Virus record (IMG/VR): IMGVR_UViG_3300020576_003495
Coordinates: 1 to 64,000 of that record
DNA from: a virus
Lineage: Duplodnaviria; Caudoviricetes
DNA length: 64,000 nt
Reading direction: 5' to 3' (one strand)
Part shown: positions 970-38,039 of the stretch, piece by piece
How positions within the stretch are numbered: position 1 is the first letter of the stretch
Layout: every line of letters starts with the position of its first letter
Position numbers and translations under genes: made by a program
The notes under the pieces: generated by a model
Told to the model about the DNA's origin: nothing
Seen by the model: the letters and a program-made list of their open reading frames with translations, nothing else
Database searches by the model: none

Positions 970-1001
970 AGCTAGGTTTCCAAACACGGATTAGTTTGCA
1001 C

Positions 1002-1655
1002 ATGCCAGCACGCATTATCTATAAAAAGGGGGATTTGATTCCCAACACTAGGCTAACGTACCAGTATGAACTACCTTCGTATAAAAACCGTCGTCAAGCC
1101 GTGTTTCTATGCTCTTGCGGGACTGTGATTGAGGCTACCGTCAATTGGGTTAGGTTTTTAAACATAACATCGTGTGGTTGTTATAGGTCTGAACTTGTTG
1201 CTGCCAAGAACACTAAGCATTCTAATGCTATTCGTGGTGCCCAATCAGGTGCCTATCGTTCATGGCAAGCGATGCACCAACGGGTTATAGTTAACCCACG
1301 GTACGCCCATGTTAAAGTGTGCGATAGATGGTCTGGTGATGATGGGTTCACTAATTTCTTGGCAGACATGGGAGAGCGACCGCATAAGCACACGATTGAA
1401 CGTAATGACAACGCTAAAGGCTACGAGCCTAGTAATTGTAGGTGGGCAACTAAGCTAGAACAAGCACAGAATCAATCACACACAGCCCGTGTAGTGATGG
1501 GTGATGAGACACACTCAATTGGCGAGTGGTGCCGTATAAAAGGGATCAGGTACGGTTTAGTAAAAGAACGTCGTAGGACAGGTATGACGCTAGAAGATTC
1601 CATTATGACGCCAATAAATACATCAAAACAGAGGTTTAAATGCAATGACAAGTAG
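1002..1655 (+). CDS. free-standing HNH homing endonuclease
   Basis: CSCG...SCGC N-terminus, SWQAMHQR, DMGERP..TIERNDNAKGYEPSNCRWAT motifs. Confidence 0.85.
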   Translation: MPARIIYKKGDLIPNTRLTYQYELPSYKNRRQAVFLCSCGTVIEATVNWVRFLNITSCGCYRSELVAAKNTKHSNAIRGAQSGAYRSWQAMHQRVIVNPRYAHVKVCDRWSGDDGFTNFLADMGERPHKHTIERNDNAKGYEPSNCRWATKLEQAQNQSHTARVVMGDETHSIGEWCRIKGIRYGLVKERRRTGMTLEDSIMTPINTSKQRFKCNDK

Positions 1656-2031
1656 GTGCTTTGTATTCGGGAGCAATTTTGATGGCCGTCATGGTAAGGG
1701 TGCAGCACTCTACGCCAAGCTTAACTACGGGGCTGTATACGGCGTTGGCGTGGGTAGAACAGGTAATGCCTATGCTATCCCCACTAAAGACGGACGACTG
1801 AGGACGCTCCCCCTGACCGTTATCAAGCAGTACGTGGACGGCTTTGTTGAGTATGCCAAAGCTAACCCCGACCTTGAGTTTAATGTCACGCGGGTAGGCT
1901 GCGGACTCGCAAATTTATGTGATAGCGCGGTAGCGCCCCTATTTTCTAGCGCATCAGAAAACTGCTTTTTTGACGAGTTTTGGAGAACCTACTTAGGCGA
2001 TTCTAAAAATTATTGGGGCACCTACGCATGA
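1645..2031 (+). CDS. conserved phage protein, FVFGSN..GRHG.GAA family (A1S_2505-like, possibly macrodomain-related)
   Basis: FVFGSNxxGRHGKGAA, YAIPTK, F.VTRVGCGLA motifs. Confidence 0.8.
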   Translation: MTSRCFVFGSNFDGRHGKGAALYAKLNYGAVYGVGVGRTGNAYAIPTKDGRLRTLPLTVIKQYVDGFVEYAKANPDLEFNVTRVGCGLANLCDSAVAPLFSSASENCFFDEFWRTYLGDSKNYWGTYA

Positions 2032-2654
2032 TAGGAAAAACATTCGGAAGGCTTACGGTAGTAGCACCGGCAGCTAAAACAGACAGGCACCTTAAATGGG
2101 AGTGCTTATGCGTCTGTGGAAACTTAACAAAAGTGCGAGCGTCGTCCTTAAGGACGGGAATAACAACATCCTGCGGTTGCGCCAACAGGGATGCAGTAAC
2201 CACACACGGGGGTAAAAAAACAAGGCTATATCAAACGTGGATAAACATGCGAAGACGCTGCACCGACACAAAAGCAACAGACTATAAGAATTATGGTGCG
2301 TTGGGCATTACTTACGCGCACACTTGGGACAATTTTGCTGTTTTTAGAGAGTGGGCGATTAAAGCGGGATACACAGATGAACTAACAATTGATAGAATAC
2401 ATGTAGAAGGTAATTACGAACCTGATAACTGCAAGTGGTCTGATTGGAACACTCAAGCCGCAAACCAAAGAAAAGCAGCGAACACGTCTTCAAAATACTT
2501 AGGTGTATCTTTAAGAGGAAGTAAGTGGGAGGCTTCCATAAAGCGTAGTGGTGTAGCGTACTACGTCGGGACGTTTGATACAGAACTTGAAGCAGCTATT
2601 GCAAGGGACGACTTCATAAAAACAAATAACTGGCCGCACAAGTTAAATTTTTAG
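2028..2654 (+). CDS. HNH homing endonuclease with C-terminal AP2 DNA-binding domain
   Basis: GKTFGRLTV, WINMRRRC, TIDRIHVEGNYEPDNCKW; SKYLGVS..WEASI..VGTFDTELEAAIARD (AP2). Confidence 0.88.
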   Translation: MIGKTFGRLTVVAPAAKTDRHLKWECLCVCGNLTKVRASSLRTGITTSCGCANRDAVTTHGGKKTRLYQTWINMRRRCTDTKATDYKNYGALGITYAHTWDNFAVFREWAIKAGYTDELTIDRIHVEGNYEPDNCKWSDWNTQAANQRKAANTSSKYLGVSLRGSKWEASIKRSGVAYYVGTFDTELEAAIARDDFIKTNNWPHKLNF

Positions 2655-21046: not shown

Positions 21047-21579
21047 GAAAAGAATTCAACGATGAAATAACTTCGCTGGCTGATGTTCTTCAGATTACCG
21101 TGGACATGCATTCGCGTGATAATAGCACTTTGCTCACTGGTGGACGGCTGTTTAAACTCCCTCTAAGCAGTGCTGCGGGTGAAGACGCTGACTTGCATGT
21201 ACGCGCTAAAATAGAAGGTTCCTTTGTCGCAGAAGGGAGTGCAGCGGTGCTGGTGCATCTTAAAGGGCGGCTGTTCGTCTACCTGAGTTGTACCAAGGAA
21301 GATAAGTCTTCCTCTTACGGGGATTGTTTGCTAGACTTGCGCATTCTTGACGCGGGTAAAGGGGGCGTCAGGATGCTGCGGATAGCGGCACACGATGTTA
21401 GCATCGGCATAGCACGAAAACTATTAAAGCCTTACACCAAAGCTGTATTTAAAAAAACCACCAAAGACGTTCAATGGAAGGCTGTGGATGGGAAAGCTTA
21501 TACTGTGGTCAAAGGGAATAGACCCCAACCAGTCAAAGATGTTGCCGCCTCTGTTGAAGGGAACGGGTGTAACGTGTAG
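21043..21579 (+). CDS. phage hypothetical protein
   Basis: 178 aa, ACGGAG RBS. Confidence 0.7.
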   Translation: MRKEFNDEITSLADVLQITVDMHSRDNSTLLTGGRLFKLPLSSAAGEDADLHVRAKIEGSFVAEGSAAVLVHLKGRLFVYLSCTKEDKSSSYGDCLLDLRILDAGKGGVRMLRIAAHDVSIGIARKLLKPYTKAVFKKTTKDVQWKAVDGKAYTVVKGNRPQPVKDVAASVEGNGCNV

Positions 21580-24500
21580 GAACATCGGATTCAAGGAAGG
21601 GGAACTTCCTGAGTCGGCTGTGGGTGATGTAGTTATAGCATTAGGAAATCACCCCCTAGATGAGCTAAAAAAGCAAGGCATCGTCCCCAAGAACCGAACG
21701 ATAGGTTCAATGCGCGGTGTAGAAAAGGCGCTCCCATCGGGGGCGTCTTTGTTCGTCTCGTATTCCTTCAGTATCAGGTCAGTTGACTACTCCCTGTCGA
21801 TTGACTTGTGCGGGGACATAAAACTTGCGGTAAGAAAGCTGCTTACAGGGAGTGTCAAGCCCCCCGCTTTGGATTTCCAGTGGGTGCAGGACTTAACGGG
21901 CGTGATAGAGCAGCTAGACGCCTTGGTAGCGTCAAAAAAGACTATGGTGGACGTAGCAATAGACCTTGAAACCACGGGTCTGGTTGCGTATGACAAGTCC
22001 ACATGGATTGTCACCTTTCAAATCTCGCTGGATACCAAATCATCCCGCGTCATCCATTTCGATCAAGACTTTCAACCCAGAAACCCGAAGGGCGCGGCTA
22101 CGTGCCGTGAAGAACTAATCTGGCTTCAAGTCAACTACATCCTTACTCACCCCCAAGTTTCGATGAAGGGGGCGAACCTAAAGTACGATCTAAACTGGCT
22201 GCACGAGAAGTGGGGGATTCACTGCACCAACTTCAAGATGGACACCCTGTTGGTGGGGAGTCTGCTGGACGAAAACCGTTCTAATAGTTTGAAAACGCAC
22301 GCTCACGTTTACACGATCTACGGGGGGTATGAACTAGAGCTAAACCAGAACTACGACATAGCACGCCCCCAAGACGTTCCGCCTGATGTTCTTCTTCCGT
22401 ACTGCGGATACGATACGACAGTCTGCCTAGAAGCTGCGGAGAAGATGCGGCACGAGCTAGTTACTTACCGCTACCCTGCAACCTTAGACGGGGTGGGTGA
22501 TGTGCACGACCTTCCCATGTTGGCTAACTTTTACATAAAAATCCTGCACCCTGCCGCACGGGCGTATGAAGAAGTTGAGCAAGTCGGTGTTCTGGTCGAC
22601 ACGGTTTATTATAATAAATTCAAGCGTGAGCTACAGGCTGACACAAAAAACAACGCTGTACGTGCCCTAGCCATGCTGCCGGGGAGAATAAAAGCCAAGT
22701 ACAGAGACAACTTGGACTTGTCCCGAGCGGCTATGTTGGGGTGCTTCTTCTTTTCAAAATTGGGCATGAAGTTAAAGCCCGTAATGTTTACCCCGAAGCC
22801 CGACAAAAAGACAGGACTACCCAAACCATCAACGGCGATGGAACACTTCTTGAAGTTCGAGAAGAATCCTGTTGCTGCACCCTTCATCAAAGTGGTGAAA
22901 GAGTACAAGGACATTTCAAAAACCCTGAGCACTTACGTTGTGGGGTTCATGAAGCATCTTCGGTATGACGACCGTTTTCATGCAGGGTATTCATTGTATC
23001 GGGGTGCGTTGGAAAGCGATGAGCGTGACGCTGGTGCTGTATGCTTTCCTTCTGGTGAGCTAATACTAACCAATCGCGGTTACTTGCCTATTGAAGACGT
23101 AAAGATCAATGACTTAGTTATCTCTCACACAGGGGAACCGAAAGCTGTTTTTGATTTTATACCCAACGGTATTAAGCCGATTAAAAAGGTAACTCTGTCT
23201 AACGGTTTGTCGCTACGGACGACGAATAACCACCCCTACCTTTCTAATGGTGCGTGGGTTAATGCCGAAGATTTGAAAGTCGGGGACTCCGTTACTGTCC
23301 ATTCAGACGTTGAGGTATGGAAGCCCGTTCCTGATTGGGGCTACTCAGTGTCTAGTTGGGGGCGCGTCAAGTCACACTACAGCGGTAAGATTATAAAGGC
23401 GCATCAGAAGGGTAAGTGGGGGCATTTAAAAGTTCAATTTGCGCGGAACGGTTCTCAGGTCAGGGGAGAAGACCGCAGAGATTTTTCTCTGCATAGATTA
23501 GTGGCGTTAGCCTTCATACCAAACCCCGAAGGACATACCGAAGTTATGCACTTGAACGGCATTGCTTGGGATAACACGGTTGGAAATCTAGCTTGGGGTT
23601 CTGGGAAAACCAATCGTGACGATGCTTCGCAGCAAGGGCGGCTTAATAAGACACGCGGATCACAGGCAAAACTAACATGGGAGTCTGTGCAGCTAATTCG
23701 TGCGTCAACATTAAGCGACGGTGTTCTTGGCAAGATGCTTGGTGTGGCTAGGGAAAGTGTGCGTGACGCCAGAACAGGCAAACGGTGGAATAAAGACCCG
23801 CAATGGACGTACCCCAATAATTTTTATGAAGCATCCGTTGTTTGCATTGAAGACCAAGAGCCTGAGCCTACCTTTGGTGTTTCAGTGGCGGATAACTACT
23901 CGCATGTGTCGGGGGGCGTGGTAACGCACAACACAGGCCGCATCTCAATCACAGACCCGGCGCTTCAATGTTTAGAAGGTAGCACTACAGTCTTGACCGA
24001 AAAGGGAGAACACACTATACTCTCTGTGGTTCAGGGCGTAGAGCGCGGGGAAGGATTTACGGTACTAACCCATACTGGTGAGTGGAAGCCCGTGATTGGT
24101 GCTTATCGTAACGGTGTACAACCGTTATTGCGGATTACCACTAAATCAGGGGCAACTGTTGAATGCACAACTAATCACCCGTGGTTAACTGATATTGGGT
24201 TTGTTAAAGCCGACAAACTAGAAGTTGGGGCTTCGGTGTGGAGATACTATGAAGAAGCAGCGCGTGGTGGCGGGGATGAAAATAGGGCGTTGGACAGTCG
24301 TGCAGGACTTGGGTACGATTCTGGACGGCCATCGGAGATACGTCTGCCAGTGCGAATGTGGAACCATTCGGGAGCTTCGGGCGGGGTCACTGACTGTAAC
24401 GACTCCGAGCATGTCTTGTGGTTGTTACAGGCGGGACAGGCTAACAACACATGGTCACAACCGCAGAGGGAAGACATCATCTACCTATTGGTCATGGCAG

Positions 24501-27013
24501 CACATGCTGTCCAGATGTTACAACCCGAACGACAAAGACTACAAGGACTATGGGGGGAGAGGGATCATAGTCTGTTCTTCTTGGAAAGAGTCATTCGAGA
24601 TATTTCTGAAAGACATGGGGGAGAAGCCACAGAAGAAATCATTAGACAGGTTGGATACGAATGGGAATTACAGCTTAGACAATTGCAGGTGGGCGACAGA
24701 TTCGGAACAGGCGCGGAATCGCAGGGCCAGTGTCTACATCGAATTTATGGGGGAGAGAAAGCACCTAATCGAGTGGGCTGTTCAGATGAACATGAAACCA
24801 GCTACGTTAGCCGCGAGGCTGCGGAGAGGGTTGAACCCGACAGTAGCCCTTACCATGCCTGTCAAGCCTTGGTGGGGGGATTCAGTAAAGACTGCATCGT
24901 AAGCATTGAAGCCATAACACCAGAAGAAACTTTTGATTTAACTATCGCGGGTAGCCATTCATTCATTGCTAACGGGATGGTAGTGCACAATACAGTGCCC
25001 AAGAAGACGAAGTGGGCAAAGCCGTTACGCAGGGCGTATATTGCCCCACCCGGATTTGTGGTGTGCAATATCGACTACGGGCAAGGGGAATTACGCATAG
25101 CCGCAGATTTAAGCGGTGACCCTGTGATGTTGAACGCCTATGCCAACGACCTTGACTTGCATGCGGTTACGGGGGCGGGTCTTGCCAAGATTGATTTTGA
25201 AACGTTCATGTCCTACAAAGACAATGAAAACCCCGCCCTAGCTAAGATTTACGAGGATAAGCGTCAGGCGGCAAAGGGAGCTAACTTCGGCTTGGCTTTA
25301 CCTTCAAATAGTGTTTGCTTAACTAGCAATGGCAATATTAAAATCCAAGACGTAGAAGCACACCATAAACTGTGGGACGGATTGGAGTGGGTTAATCATG
25401 ACGGTATTATTCATCAAGGGTGGTTCGAAGTCTTTGAATGGGACGGAGTTAGCGCAACACCAAACCATAACGTCTGGACAGAAGACGGAAGAAAAATCGA
25501 ATTGCAGCAAGCCGCTAAAGAAGGTGCCAAGCTTGCAAGAACTGCAAGCGTTTCTGGAAAGCCGATCCTTCGGTACGATGACGTTAGCAAAGGGGGAGTC
25601 TCCACGGTTCTATTCGGACATAGTGCGAATGGATTGCTCTCTGTGCGGAACCTTTCATCAAGTTCGAGCAAGGGACTTATACTTGGGGCATACCCTTGGT
25701 GGGAAATGTGCAAGAAGGGACAAGTATCACGGAGACAAACGCGCCCAAGTTTTAGGGGCACGTTACGACTGTATGGTGCAGCGTTGCAACAGAGATACAC
25801 ACAAGCAGTCAAAAGACTACAAAGGGAAGGGAATAAAGTGCTTGTTCGAATCACGAGAGCATTTTATTCGTTGGGCGTTGGAAACATTCCCTGTGGGGAG
25901 TTACAAGGGTTTGGAGTTCGACAGGATAGACAACAAAGGACACTACTCACCAGAAAATCTTCGATTAGTCTCAAGTTCAGAGAACCATCGCAATTTGGAT
26001 CACAACGTCTTCCTGACGTATCAAGGCGTGAAGATGTTTTGGGCGGATTGGAAAAGTCCTTACCATCCCCGAAGAACACAAGCGTTTGCCAAAGCGGGTT
26101 TAACGGGAGGGCAGATAATTCAGCGAGCCAAGGATTCAATCGCCAAGAAGTGCAAAAATTGGAGAGTGTTGCAACAACGCCTAGAGACTCTTGGTTATGC
26201 GCCGACTACGGGGATAACGACACCTACGTTTACTTTTATGGGGATCGTGACCCCGTGGAAAGAATGGAAAAGCCCTTACAGCTTGGAGAAGACGAGAGAA
26301 CTGGTGTACGCGGGGTTGTCAGGGGAACAGATTATCGAGCGATGCAAGAACGTAATCGCAAAGAAGCAGAAGAATTACGAAGCCTTGGCTTTAAAACTGA
26401 AAGAGTTAGGGTATATGATATTCTGAACGCTGGCCCCCGCCGAAGATTCACTTGCTCGGGTGTTCTTGTGTCAAACTGCTACGGCATGGGCGCAGAGGGT
26501 TACAGGGACTATGCAGAGATAGCCTACAGGCACGTTATGACCTTGGAAGAGGCTACAATTAACCGTGATTTATTTTTCGAAACTTATAAATACCTTATCC
26601 CATGGCACGATAGGTACAAGGACTTCGCCAAGAAGTACGGCTACACGCACTCCCCGCTAGGTCGAATTAGGCATTTACCGTTGTTGAATAGCTCAGACAA
26701 GCAGGTAGCGTCCAAGGAACTGCGTAGAGCAGTCAACTCGCCCGTGCAAGGCTGCTTGTCTGACATGTCTTTGTGGGCAACATCAATTATGCATCGTGAA
26801 GGCTTGACAAAGAAAGCCCCGGTGGTGATGATGTGTCATGATGCGTTGGTGTTTTATCTTCCCGAAGACAACGTGGAGTATTACGCGAAGCGGTACAAAG
26901 AGATTATGGAGAATCTTCCCTTTGAACAAGTGCATTGGAAACCGAAGGTGAAGTTTTCCTGTGATGTGGAAATTGGCCCCTCGTGGTCTGCGCTCACCAA
27001 GCTTAAGTTATAA
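21488..27013 (+). CDS. polA: family A DNA polymerase with N-terminal UDG-like domain, 3'-5' exonuclease and three inteins
   Basis: DLETTGL, ANLKYD (exo); TGRIS..P.LQ, motif A IDYGQGELR, motif B RQAAKGANFGL/CYG, NSPVQG, motif C HD. Confidence 0.95.
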   Translation: MGKLILWSKGIDPNQSKMLPPLLKGTGVTCRNIGFKEGELPESAVGDVVIALGNHPLDELKKQGIVPKNRTIGSMRGVEKALPSGASLFVSYSFSIRSVDYSLSIDLCGDIKLAVRKLLTGSVKPPALDFQWVQDLTGVIEQLDALVASKKTMVDVAIDLETTGLVAYDKSTWIVTFQISLDTKSSRVIHFDQDFQPRNPKGAATCREELIWLQVNYILTHPQVSMKGANLKYDLNWLHEKWGIHCTNFKMDTLLVGSLLDENRSNSLKTHAHVYTIYGGYELELNQNYDIARPQDVPPDVLLPYCGYDTTVCLEAAEKMRHELVTYRYPATLDGVGDVHDLPMLANFYIKILHPAARAYEEVEQVGVLVDTVYYNKFKRELQADTKNNAVRALAMLPGRIKAKYRDNLDLSRAAMLGCFFFSKLGMKLKPVMFTPKPDKKTGLPKPSTAMEHFLKFEKNPVAAPFIKVVKEYKDISKTLSTYVVGFMKHLRYDDRFHAGYSLYRGALESDERDAGAVCFPSGELILTNRGYLPIEDVKINDLVISHTGEPKAVFDFIPNGIKPIKKVTLSNGLSLRTTNNHPYLSNGAWVNAEDLKVGDSVTVHSDVEVWKPVPDWGYSVSSWGRVKSHYSGKIIKAHQKGKWGHLKVQFARNGSQVRGEDRRDFSLHRLVALAFIPNPEGHTEVMHLNGIAWDNTVGNLAWGSGKTNRDDASQQGRLNKTRGSQAKLTWESVQLIRASTLSDGVLGKMLGVARESVRDARTGKRWNKDPQWTYPNNFYEASVVCIEDQEPEPTFGVSVADNYSHVSGGVVTHNTGRISITDPALQCLEGSTTVLTEKGEHTILSVVQGVERGEGFTVLTHTGEWKPVIGAYRNGVQPLLRITTKSGATVECTTNHPWLTDIGFVKADKLEVGASVWRYYEEAARGGGDENRALDSRAGLGYDSGRPSEIRLPVRMWNHSGASGGVTDCNDSEHVLWLLQAGQANNTWSQPQREDIIYLLVMAAHAVQMLQPERQRLQGLWGERDHSLFFLERVIRDISERHGGEATEEIIRQVGYEWELQLRQLQVGDRFGTGAESQGQCLHRIYGGEKAPNRVGCSDEHETSYVSREAAERVEPDSSPYHACQALVGGFSKDCIVSIEAITPEETFDLTIAGSHSFIANGMVVHNTVPKKTKWAKPLRRAYIAPPGFVVCNIDYGQGELRIAADLSGDPVMLNAYANDLDLHAVTGAGLAKIDFETFMSYKDNENPALAKIYEDKRQAAKGANFGLALPSNSVCLTSNGNIKIQDVEAHHKLWDGLEWVNHDGIIHQGWFEVFEWDGVSATPNHNVWTEDGRKIELQQAAKEGAKLARTASVSGKPILRYDDVSKGGVSTVLFGHSANGLLSVRNLSSSSSKGLILGAYPWWEMCKKGQVSRRQTRPSFRGTLRLYGAALQQRYTQAVKRLQREGNKVLVRITRAFYSLGVGNIPCGELQGFGVRQDRQQRTLLTRKSSISLKFREPSQFGSQRLPDVSRREDVLGGLEKSLPSPKNTSVCQSGFNGRADNSASQGFNRQEVQKLESVATTPRDSWLCADYGDNDTYVYFYGDRDPVERMEKPLQLGEDERTGVRGVVRGTDYRAMQERNRKEAEELRSLGFKTERVRVYDILNAGPRRRFTCSGVLVSNCYGMGAEGYRDYAEIAYRHVMTLEEATINRDLFFETYKYLIPWHDRYKDFAKKYGYTHSPLGRIRHLPLLNSSDKQVASKELRRAVNSPVQGCLSDMSLWATSIMHREGLTKKAPVVMMCHDALVFYLPEDNVEYYAKRYKEIMENLPFEQVHWKPKVKFSCDVEIGPSWSALTKLKL
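23042..23932 (+). mobile_element. intein 1 (297 aa) with in-frame NUMOD4/HNH endonuclease
   Basis: CFPSGELILT...TNNHP...VVTHN/T; EVWKPVP..YSVSSWGRVKS, HRLVALAFIPNP..HLNG..DN. Confidence 0.93.
23969..24991 (+). mobile_element. intein 2 (341 aa) with endonuclease encoded in the +1 frame
   Basis: CLEGSTTVLT..TTNHPW...TFDLTIAGSHSFIANGMVVHN/T. Confidence 0.93.
24249..24902 (+). CDS. HNH endonuclease nested out of frame in intein 2
   Basis: GGAG at 24240-24243 before ATG; IGRWTVV..CQCECG..SCGC..SWQHMLSRC..YGGRGI.VC..DMGEKP..LDRLDTNGNYSLDNCRWAT. Confidence 0.9.
   Translation: MKKQRVVAGMKIGRWTVVQDLGTILDGHRRYVCQCECGTIRELRAGSLTVTTPSMSCGCYRRDRLTTHGHNRRGKTSSTYWSWQHMLSRCYNPNDKDYKDYGGRGIIVCSSWKESFEIFLKDMGEKPQKKSLDRLDTNGNYSLDNCRWATDSEQARNRRASVYIEFMGERKHLIEWAVQMNMKPATLAARLRRGLNPTVALTMPVKPWWGDSVKTAS
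25295..26476 (+). mobile_element. intein 3 (394 aa), Ala1/Cys+1 KlbA-like (class 2), endonuclease in the +1 frame
   Basis: ALPSNSVCLT..ATPNHNVW...VYDILNAGPRRRFTCSGVLVSN/C; excision restores KGANFGL-CYGMG. Confidence 0.88.
25398..26426 (+). CDS. HNH endonuclease nested out of frame in intein 3 (true start probably 25524-25578)
   Basis: CSLCG, YDCMVQRC..DYKGKGIKC..FDRIDNKGHYSPENLRLV; duplicated C-terminal WKSPY..AGL.G.QII.R repeats. Confidence 0.85.
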   Translation: MTVLFIKGGSKSLNGTELAQHQTITSGQKTEEKSNCSKPLKKVPSLQELQAFLESRSFGTMTLAKGESPRFYSDIVRMDCSLCGTFHQVRARDLYLGHTLGGKCARRDKYHGDKRAQVLGARYDCMVQRCNRDTHKQSKDYKGKGIKCLFESREHFIRWALETFPVGSYKGLEFDRIDNKGHYSPENLRLVSSSENHRNLDHNVFLTYQGVKMFWADWKSPYHPRRTQAFAKAGLTGGQIIQRAKDSIAKKCKNWRVLQQRLETLGYAPTTGITTPTFTFMGIVTPWKEWKSPYSLEKTRELVYAGLSGEQIIERCKNVIAKKQKNYEALALKLKELGYMIF

Positions 27014-37259: not shown

Positions 37260-38039
37260 ATGCTAGTCACGGGTGATTTTATGCAAATTGTTTACACTTT
37301 TGGAAGTTGGCGAAGCATGCGAGACAGATGCACGGTTCCTAGCAGCGCAAATTACCTTAGCTACGGTGGTCGTGGAATCATTGTGTGCGAGCGATGGCTA
37401 GAATCTGCGGATAACTTCGTTGTAGATATGGGGATAAAGCCTGTGGGAACTTCCCTAGAGCGCCTTGACGTTAACGGAAATTACGAACCGGCTAACTGTC
37501 AGTGGGCGACAAAGAAACAGCAAGCCCAAAATAGGCGCACCAGCATTGCGCTCACGCATAACGGTGAAACAAAGAACGTTGCTGAGTGGGCTAGGGAAAA
37601 AGGTATGGGCGTGTCGACACTAATTGGGCGACACCACTCAGGAATGCCCCTAGAAAAAGCCTTGGGCGATAAAGTCCATACTAACGCTAAGGAGCGTGCG
37701 CGTAATCGTAAGAGCAACGTCTTAGTTACTTACGACGGTAAAACACAATGCATGATTGAATGGGCAGAAGAAATAAACATTCCTGTGAAGACGCTATGGC
37801 ACCGTAAATCTTTGGGTTGGTCAGATGAGAAAATAGTTACCACTCCGACACATCGTAACCCCGATGTCCCTAAGTTTTATCCTTTCCCCACAGAATCCGG
37901 TGTTGAGATGTTGAATCTTTCAGAAATTGCGCGTAGAACGAATCAAACATTAACAGCGGTTAGAGTTAAAATCTTAGACGGTGAATCCCCTGAAGTGGTG
38001 TTTTCTAATAAAAAACGTAAGCCTAAGCGTTGCAAGTAA
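37260..38039 (+). CDS. free-standing HNH homing endonuclease
   Basis: SWRSMRDRC..YGGRGIIVCERW..DMG..SLERLDVNGNYEPANCQWAT; repeated GET...EWA DNA-binding modules. Confidence 0.88.
   Translation: MLVTGDFMQIVYTFGSWRSMRDRCTVPSSANYLSYGGRGIIVCERWLESADNFVVDMGIKPVGTSLERLDVNGNYEPANCQWATKKQQAQNRRTSIALTHNGETKNVAEWAREKGMGVSTLIGRHHSGMPLEKALGDKVHTNAKERARNRKSNVLVTYDGKTQCMIEWAEEINIPVKTLWHRKSLGWSDEKIVTTPTHRNPDVPKFYPFPTESGVEMLNLSEIARRTNQTLTAVRVKILDGESPEVVFSNKKRKPKRCK

Follow-up and report, generated by a model that had tools for sequence, protein, structure and literature searches.

A family-A DNA polymerase intein of an uncultured phage with an HNH-like gene in the +1 frame of its endonuclease slot

The locus

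The DNA considered here is the first 64 kb (the window, positions 1 to 64,000) of the IMG/VR record IMGVR_UViG_3300020576_003495, a 178-kb metagenome-derived record of an uncultured virus. The subject is the second of the three inteins in its family-A DNA polymerase gene, hereafter intein 2, whose middle also holds a separate open reading frame (ORF), probably for an HNH-like nuclease, at an offset of +1 from the polymerase frame. The polymerase ORF is matched in Pfam by DNA_pol_A (E 5e-45), by DNA_pol_A_exo1, i.e., the 3'-5' exonuclease domain, and by Intein_splicing. The features of the polymerase gene and of intein 2, with the confidence of the structural model given as pLDDT (predicted local distance difference test), are as follows:

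21488..27013, plus strand: family-A DNA polymerase gene, a single uninterrupted ORF of 1841 codons, precursor with three inteins
23969..24991, plus strand: intein 2, class-1 HINT intein of 341 codons, at the site DPALQ/TVPKK (slash, insertion point), just upstream of polymerase motif A
23969..24250, plus strand: N-terminal splicing lobe, intein residues 1-94, blocks A and B, pLDDT 78-90
24240..24243, plus strand: Shine-Dalgarno-like GGAG, 5 nt before the nuclease ATG, within Trp-Arg codons of the polymerase frame
24249..24902, plus strand: putative nuclease gene in the +1 frame, 217 codons plus TAA, of the HNH-like family phrog_374
24251..24817, plus strand: the DNA of the nuclease gene as read in the polymerase frame, a linker without stops, intein residues 95-283
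24818..24991, plus strand: C-terminal splicing lobe, intein residues 284-341, blocks F and G

The first codon of intein 2 is TGT (Cys1, 23969-23971) and its last codons are CAC AAT (His-Asn), which end at 24991 and are followed by ACA (Thr+1), so that the protein begins with CLEGST and ends with VVHN. These limits coincide exactly with those given in a preliminary description of this DNA, which was made from the letters and their reading frames.

Two open frames over the same DNA

Within intein 2, stop codons number 0 in frame 0, which is that of the polymerase, 11 in the +1 frame, all of them outside the nuclease ORF, and 29 in the +2 frame. Outside this ORF the +1 frame has a normal stop density, with 7 stops in the first 84 intein codons and 4 in the last 30. 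Its open stretch extends from 24219 as far as the TAA at 24900-24902 and includes the ATG at 24249 and the GGAG five bases upstream. The preliminary description had stated that both frames were free of stops over this DNA and that the nuclease gene had a GGAG Shine-Dalgarno sequence of its own, and the counts and positions agree with both statements.

A chance origin of this openness was assessed by keeping the +1 protein (217 residues) fixed and altering its gene through synonymous resampling by phage codon usage, within-gene shuffling, or shuffling of the codon order. The polymerase frame gained 9.7-14.1 stops on average, and it was stop-free in 0 of 20,000 trials of each kind. The equivalent frame of three free-standing paralogs in the window has 30 stops (the ORF at 996), 18 (2013) and 33 (37260). 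A stop in the polymerase frame requires a nuclease codon ending in T ahead of a codon that starts with AA, AG or GA, and across 21 distinct intein-borne copies of the gene there is no T at any of the 1,075 junctions of this kind, compared with a T at the end of 21% of the other codons of the same ORFs and at 81 of the 195 such junctions in the free-standing paralogs. Given this, the codon choice of the nuclease gene is constrained in such a way that the polymerase stays readable.

Read in the polymerase frame, intein residues 95-283 have a pLDDT of 21-32 in the AlphaFold model, and no Pfam family match was found for them. The middle of intein 2 is, in other words, predicted to be an unconserved and unstructured linker of about 190 residues, in line with the earlier claim that this portion is non-homologous sequence, which is borne out also by the proportion of nonsynonymous differences (pN) there, about equal to or above that of synonymous ones (pS).

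Splicing lobes and insertion site

The portions of intein 2 on either side of the nuclease gene retain what a class-1 intein would need, namely Cys1, the T-x-x-H of block B, the C-terminal His-Asn, the Thr+1 and a HINT fold in the model. Among nine aligned relatives the invariant residues are C1, T67, N69, H70 and P71 in the N-terminal lobe and D323, L324, T325, H330, S331, F332, H340 and N341 in the C-terminal lobe; the catalytic splicing residues C1, T67, H70, D323, H340 and N341 are all in this set, and Thr+1 directly follows the intein in all nine loci, which upholds the view that the splicing blocks are normal. The confident lobes of the AlphaFold model match solved mini-inteins with a probability of 1.00 and TMt of 0.59-0.73, among them the splicing domain of the Mtu RecA intein (E 3e-5, TMt 0.6), NpuDnaB (TMt 0.73), gp41-1 and a DnaX mini-intein. 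The C-terminal lobe has a pLDDT of 55-92 over intein residues 281-330 and less than 50 over the last 12 residues, and its first 28 codons or so overlap the tail of the nuclease, itself of low confidence (pLDDT 60-87).

Excision of 23969-24991 gives TGRISITDPALQ-TVPKKTKWAKPLRRAY, and the closest intein-less relatives (P0155) read TGRISIKDPALQTIPKKTKWAKPLRRAF, i.e., the spliced junction equals the empty allele; more generally, intein-less relatives read TGRISIKDPALQ/TIPKKTKWAK at the insertion site. The C-extein aligns from its second residue onward to Klenow IPVRNEEGRRIRQAFIAP...DYSQIELR, and from this alignment, together with the spliced junction, the insertion site can be identified as the element DPxLQ/(N or T)-IP just before motif A. 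On the evidence of its residues, its modelled fold and its restored junction, intein 2 probably splices in cis.

Relatives at the same site and the direction of selection

Relatives were gathered through a region-restricted protein search, the retrieval of DNA for nine loci, and two pattern scans. The protein search gave more than 20 polymerases with an intein at the site of intein 2, none of which has the nuclease in frame; many of them are weakly similar to the apparent junk of the polymerase frame, a by-product of the conservation of the other frame. At the level of DNA, the nuclease stands at the +1 offset in 21 of 21 distinct nuclease-bearing inteins at this site and in frame in 0, and in every one of these, at nuclease identities of 36-80%, the nuclease ORF is intact and the polymerase frame is open. 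Searches of cultured-phage records with the intein region, both as DNA and as protein, gave no match, and a search of viral contigs with the polymerase N-terminus led to no locus that could be confirmed.

Selection was measured on a codon alignment of the nine loci (36 pairs), as had been proposed in the preliminary description. In the overlap, the mean amino-acid identity is 0.44 in the nuclease frame vs 0.25 in the polymerase frame, and it is higher in the nuclease frame in 36 of 36 pairs. The differences per nuclease codon position are 0.43, 0.42 and 0.58, and the nuclease frame has a pS of 0.73 and a pN of 0.41, compared with a pS of 0.44 and a pN of 0.49 in the polymerase frame. The closest pair (L007-L010) has a pN of 0.16 and a pS of 0.74 in the nuclease frame, with a pN/pS of 0.22, and the pair L009-L011 has a pN/pS of 0.32; in both pairs the ratio is above 1 in the polymerase frame. 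Within the overlap, purifying selection acts on the nuclease frame, and the polymerase frame shows none. The splicing lobes reverse this pattern, with the third codon position of the polymerase frame being the most variable (0.69 and 0.64), and the DNA therefore changes its owner twice inside intein 2. The only doubly constrained piece is that of about 85 nt at the 3' end, where the tail of the nuclease lies over the start of the C-terminal lobe.

Four loci (L022, L028, L041 and L043) were considered as pseudogenes and rejected as such, given that the stops in their tblastn matches are the natural ends of shorter ORFs, and no decayed full-length copy of the nuclease gene was found among the loci inspected. 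Five others (L029, L032, L034, L046 and L047) were left out as inteins in other genes, at the GK/T site of a P-loop. The first four of these are inteins of about 400-430 residues at the P-loop GK/T of a helicase- or terminase-like protein; their C-terminal lobes are related to that of intein 2, and a phrog_374 nuclease was detected in none of them.

The internal start signal

A GGAGAT or GGGGAT motif stands 3-7 nt ahead of the nuclease ATG in nearly all of the 21 relatives. In many loci the motif corresponds to Gly-Asp codons of the polymerase frame, replaced by Trp-Arg in the window, and such a motif is present at half of the window's own gene starts. Furthermore, a stop in the +1 frame lies 12-57 nt upstream of the nuclease ATG in most loci (24219-24221 in the window), and its closeness to the ATG favours internal initiation over frameshifting as the way in which the nuclease would be made.

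Identity of the +1 product

The +1 ORF matches phrog_374, annotated as HNH endonuclease, with E 3.5e-63 over residues 1-203. Four further PHROGs of HNH or restriction endonucleases match it with E 1e-13 to 1e-48, and the endonuclease VII PHROG (phrog_1035) matches it with only E 0.0021. Full-length free-standing homologs of about 40% identity were found by tblastn in 1,166 phage records from many hosts, and a protein search gave at least 7,795 relatives. Three of the free-standing genes lie in the window, and their kinship with the intein-borne gene, already suspected from the letters of the DNA, was confirmed at 32-41% identity:

996..1655, plus strand: free-standing nuclease paralog, 32% identity to the +1 ORF, groups with the intein-borne copies in the tree
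2013..2654, plus strand: free-standing nuclease paralog, 32% identity to the +1 ORF
37260..38039, plus strand: free-standing nuclease paralog, 41% identity to the +1 ORF, extended at the C-terminus, placed with the intein-borne copies in the tree

In what was a quick tree only, ten intein-borne nucleases fall in one group of 15 rows (SH-aLRT 93) together with the paralogs at 996 and 37260. The AlphaFold model of the nuclease, built on an alignment of 50 sequences, has a mean pLDDT of 90.2, and its N-terminal 50 residues form a small SH3/Tudor-like barrel. The conserved motif of the protein is S-L-D-R-L-D ... N145 ... N157, with N145, N157 and four Cys being conserved. Considering these matches and the model, an HNH-like nuclease is the best reading of the +1 product. 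The "complete HNH" of the preliminary description stands in so far as phrog_374 and a moderate fold match speak for it, but neither Pfam nor NCBIfam gives an HNH.

Among the best matches in a search of 5.8 billion proteins, neither the +1 ORF itself nor its 60%-identical intein-borne relative appears, and no entry close to the ORF is among them either. Evidently, gene callers skip the nested nuclease genes, and such genes are invisible in protein databases. The nuclease family is also represented at 6154-6402 of the relative L002, just downstream of the polymerase gene and outside any intein, by a short copy or fragment with 50% identity over 84 residues.

Other states of the site and mobility

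The site of intein 2 is found in several other states. Mini-inteins of 161-168 residues occupy it in L027, L042 and L012, the last of which still has 63 residues of the nuclease left in its +1 frame, and L021 has an intein of 200 residues in which only the last 44 nuclease codons are left. A split intein is present at the same site in two samples (L003 and L004; positions 4200-4460 of L003, and the same in L004, L023 and L024). In these, the first polymerase ORF stops within the N-terminal lobe, there is no nuclease gene, and the second ORF, which overlaps the first by 8 nt, begins in the +1 frame with an ATG that is preceded by GAGGGGG and stands where the nuclease begins in the other loci, and it continues directly into the C-terminal lobe. 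A single deletion, of a length that is not a multiple of three, would convert a dual-frame intein into this split form.

Empty alleles are found in the nearest extein relatives, P0153 (58%) and P0154 and P0155 (51-52%). The nearest relative of the intein and the nuclease (L005, 52% and 60%, respectively) belongs to a distant polymerase, with 36% identity in the N-extein and 47% in the C-extein, and the closest intein-bearing exteins, P0013 and P0015 (N-extein 51%, C-extein 61-64%), have inteins of only 38% and 36% identity. This discordance of exteins and inteins suggests horizontal spread.

The other inteins of the gene

Two further inteins are found in the polymerase ORF:

23042..23932, plus strand: intein 1, with an in-frame NUMOD4 + HNH_3 endonuclease; Pfam PT-HINT, NUMOD4 and HNH_3
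25295..26476, plus strand: intein 3, at motif B, a second dual-frame intein, with a +1 ORF at 25398-26426

Inteins 1 and 2 are separated by just 12 extein residues (TGRISITDPALQ), and their HINT lobes are 33-41% identical. The endonuclease of intein 1 is an in-frame NUMOD4/HNH_3 protein, and the nuclease of intein 2 is an overlapping one of a different family; both inteins are also present together in several relatives (L002, L010 and L012). The +1 ORF of intein 3, of 342 codons, matches phrog_374 with E 1e-23, and the polymerase frame across this intein has 0 stops vs 15-23 expected. The same dual-frame layout is kept in the relative L003 (4897-5652), with 54% identity of the nuclease. Intein 3 seemingly begins with Ala (ALPSN), and its removal restores ANFGL-CYGMG. 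The polymerase of L002 (809-5863) is without intein 3 and has an extra intein in the exonuclease domain, which starts with CVDAST, ends with ASHN/S and is absent from the window. Among the relatives, the number of inteins per polymerase gene ranges from 0 to 3.

Proposed mechanism and alternative explanations

The reading proposed here, with a probability of roughly 0.8, is that intein 2 is a cis-splicing class-1 intein whose endonuclease slot is filled by a separate gene of the same strand, in the +1 frame, for an HNH-like homing nuclease. One mRNA would be read in two frames. Ribosomes that start at the polymerase ATG would pass through the nuclease gene in frame 0 and make an unstructured linker of about 190 residues between the two HINT lobes, which would then fold as one unit and excise the entire insert, so that the mature polymerase again reads ...TGRISITDPALQ-TVPKK... 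The nuclease would be made separately from the GGAG-N5-ATG at 24249, and given this start of its own, the amount of nuclease need not follow that of the polymerase. It would most likely act as a homing endonuclease, which cuts intein-less polymerase alleles and thereby spreads the unit of intein and nuclease. As for the origin, a free-standing nuclease gene may have invaded a mini-intein, as was already supposed in the preliminary description; mini-inteins do occur at the site, and free-standing members of the family occur in the same phage.

Several results weigh against this reading and need to be set beside it. With respect to the enzyme, the nuclease is not recognised as an HNH by either Pfam or NCBIfam, HNH_3 is matched, and weakly, by only 2 of 50 members of its family, and the PDB yielded nothing at E <= 0.001 in a Foldseek search with the model and nothing in a sequence search with the nuclease. 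The similarity of model residues 67-162 to PacI in its complex with DNA (3m7k_A; Z 6.2, root-mean-square deviation 3.2, 81 residues aligned) is middling by the scale of the tool and is the sole structural support for a beta-beta-alpha-Me fold. HNH enzymes usually carry the first catalytic His at a position which is here occupied, in the whole family, by an invariant Arg (R134, in D-R-x-D; placed by eye), and the activity of the nuclease is therefore not assured. With respect to expression, no conserved RNA hairpin was found around the internal start (0 predicted pairs in 8 loci), and promoter-like sites number 6 vs a shuffled expectation of 3.6 +/- 1.8, i.e., not above chance. Terminator-like sites number 3 vs an expectation of 2.9, and a sequence tried as a promoter, TTGACC-17-TATACT at 23993-24021, was dropped, given that promoter-like sites are at chance level. 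With respect to mobility, the case is made of pairwise identities, and in the quick tree the intein-borne nucleases do not come out as a single clade.

The chief alternative, which is unlikely but retains some weight, accepts that the +1 protein is expressed and makes it a lodger rather than the homing enzyme of this intein, i.e., another copy of an abundant phage family of HNH-like or DNA-binding proteins which uses the tolerant middle of the intein as a safe place, with the intein itself passing on mainly by vertical descent. The invariant Arg and the lack of a Pfam HNH match would fit this explanation, as would the huge size of the family, the members of which (at least 7,795 proteins and 1,166 phage records) are mostly free-standing, and the fact that the nuclease and the splicing lobes diverge in step. 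On the other hand, the ORF exactly fills the endonuclease slot, from block B to block F, in 21 of 21 inteins, and the intein is patchy relative to the extein, with empty alleles in the nearest relatives, both of which fit homing, and the central domain does resemble PacI, which is an HNH enzyme.

Much less probable is that the +1 ORF is a decaying, untranslated relic, with intein 2 being effectively a mini-intein with a long loop. The nuclease can indeed be lost, as the mini-inteins and deletion remnants at the site (L012, L021, L027 and L042) indicate, but the ORF is intact in all of the 21 inteins which still hold it, its pN/pS is about 0.2-0.3 in the closest pairs, its start signal is conserved, and its product is modelled with a pLDDT of 90. 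A programmed +1 ribosomal frameshift, by which the nuclease would be made as a fusion to the N-extein and the N-terminal lobe, is more improbable still. It would suit a single mRNA that serves both frames and a locus in which neither a separate promoter nor an RNA element was found, but in most loci the +1 stop is so close ahead of the ATG that a shift site could hardly be fitted between them, and the Shine-Dalgarno motif and the ATG are conserved at the right spacing. Finally, assembly or sequencing frameshifts that had split an ordinary in-frame endonuclease domain, one of the two grounds on which the preliminary description was to be given up, can practically be dismissed, given that with two errors that compensate each other the polymerase frame would retain many stops, where there are none, that 21 distinct sequences from independent samples and assemblers have the same +1 offset and the same two open frames, and that no relative has the domain in frame.

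Implications

Inteins with a separate, overlapping gene for the homing enzyme were long viewed as curiosities, until recently. The family at this polymerase site makes the dual-frame layout the rule, with clean comparative evidence. Alleles without an intein, mini-inteins, inteins with the nuclease, remnants left by deletion and a split intein all occur at this one site, and such a series allows direct tests both of the model of "splicing domain first, endonuclease later" and of how split inteins arose. The apparent tolerance of about 190 residues of arbitrary linker is also relevant to the engineering of inteins with inserts.

A tentative proposal, for which the odds are rather below even, is that the overlap is a stable partnership and not a passing accident, with two consequences. 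In the first place, every frameshifting indel in the nuclease gene would also disrupt the essential polymerase. A common route of endonuclease decay would thereby be closed, which would explain why the ORF is intact in all 21 nuclease-bearing inteins at identities of 36-80%. In the second place, the ribosome-binding site and the ATG of the nuclease would sit exactly at the natural split point of the intein, and a single out-of-frame deletion could therefore yield a translationally coupled split intein such as that of L003 and L004, which would amount to a one-step natural route to split inteins.

Comparison with known systems

The architecture as such has precedents, having been proposed by Gorbalenya 1998 and first described in preprints of 2025 and 2026 (Gosselin et al. 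2025; Phillips et al. 2026). Studies on actinophage inteins were performed by Gosselin, Arsenault and Gogarten (bioRxiv 10.1101/2025.01.02.630785), who reported antisense endonucleases in addition to an endonuclease VII-like gene read in "frame 3", termed the layout rare, and proposed invasion by free-standing genes as its origin; the mention of similar actinobacteriophage inteins in the preliminary description was thus correct. As in those inteins, the endonuclease gene is here in another frame of the same strand, inside the endonuclease slot, the intein frame is open there without recognisable structure, and the nuclease is related to free-standing phage genes. The differences are in the enzyme and the host gene, theirs being endonuclease VII-like, in "frame 3", in actinophage genes, with Pol III alpha as the polymerase that is named, whereas that of intein 2 is phrog_374 HNH-like, at +1, in the family-A polymerase of an uncultured 178-kb phage. 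Moreover, a layout that was termed rare is found here in all 21 nuclease-bearing inteins of the site.

A second case is the cyanobacterial dnaX intein with an out-of-frame LAGLIDADG endonuclease in a +2 ORF (Phillips, DeSimone and Gogarten; bioRxiv 10.64898/2026.09.14.751524), in which the first proposal is credited to Gorbalenya 1998. The likeness extends to the overlapping coding, to a low ratio of nonsynonymous to synonymous substitution (dN/dS) in the nuclease frame and a raised one in the intein frame, to the coexistence of mini-intein and empty alleles, and to an origin read as the secondary invasion of a mini-intein. That case, however, concerns a cellular gene, LAGLIDADG and +2, and the present one a phage polymerase, an HNH-like protein and +1. 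The published out-of-frame cases use endonuclease VII-like or LAGLIDADG enzymes, and given that the nuclease of intein 2 is of a different family, it is not the same element as the published ones.

Two other arrangements share part of the design. The fractured gene with a split intein described by Dassa et al. 2009 (PMC2677866) likewise involves a phage replication gene and an intein whose endonuclease slot is taken by an endonuclease gene of free-standing type, and in step III of their scheme the endonuclease is lost and the C-terminal part keeps an upstream control element. This step matches the relatives L003 and L004, in which the host gene is broken and the intein split. In the window, on the contrary, the polymerase gene is unbroken and its frame runs through the nuclease, and the intein is contiguous and should splice in cis. 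The hidden out-of-frame HNH insertions of ShiLan type in phage methylase genes (Arsenault et al. 2025; PMC11855218) are similar in that the host ORF remains free of stops although an HNH gene lies nested out of frame within it, but they have no splicing domain and their loop is thought to be retained in the protein, whereas intact HINT lobes flank the nuclease here. What is new in intein 2, compared with all of these systems, is the family of the nuclease, the +1 frame, the polymerase site, and the overlap in all of the nuclease-bearing inteins at that site.

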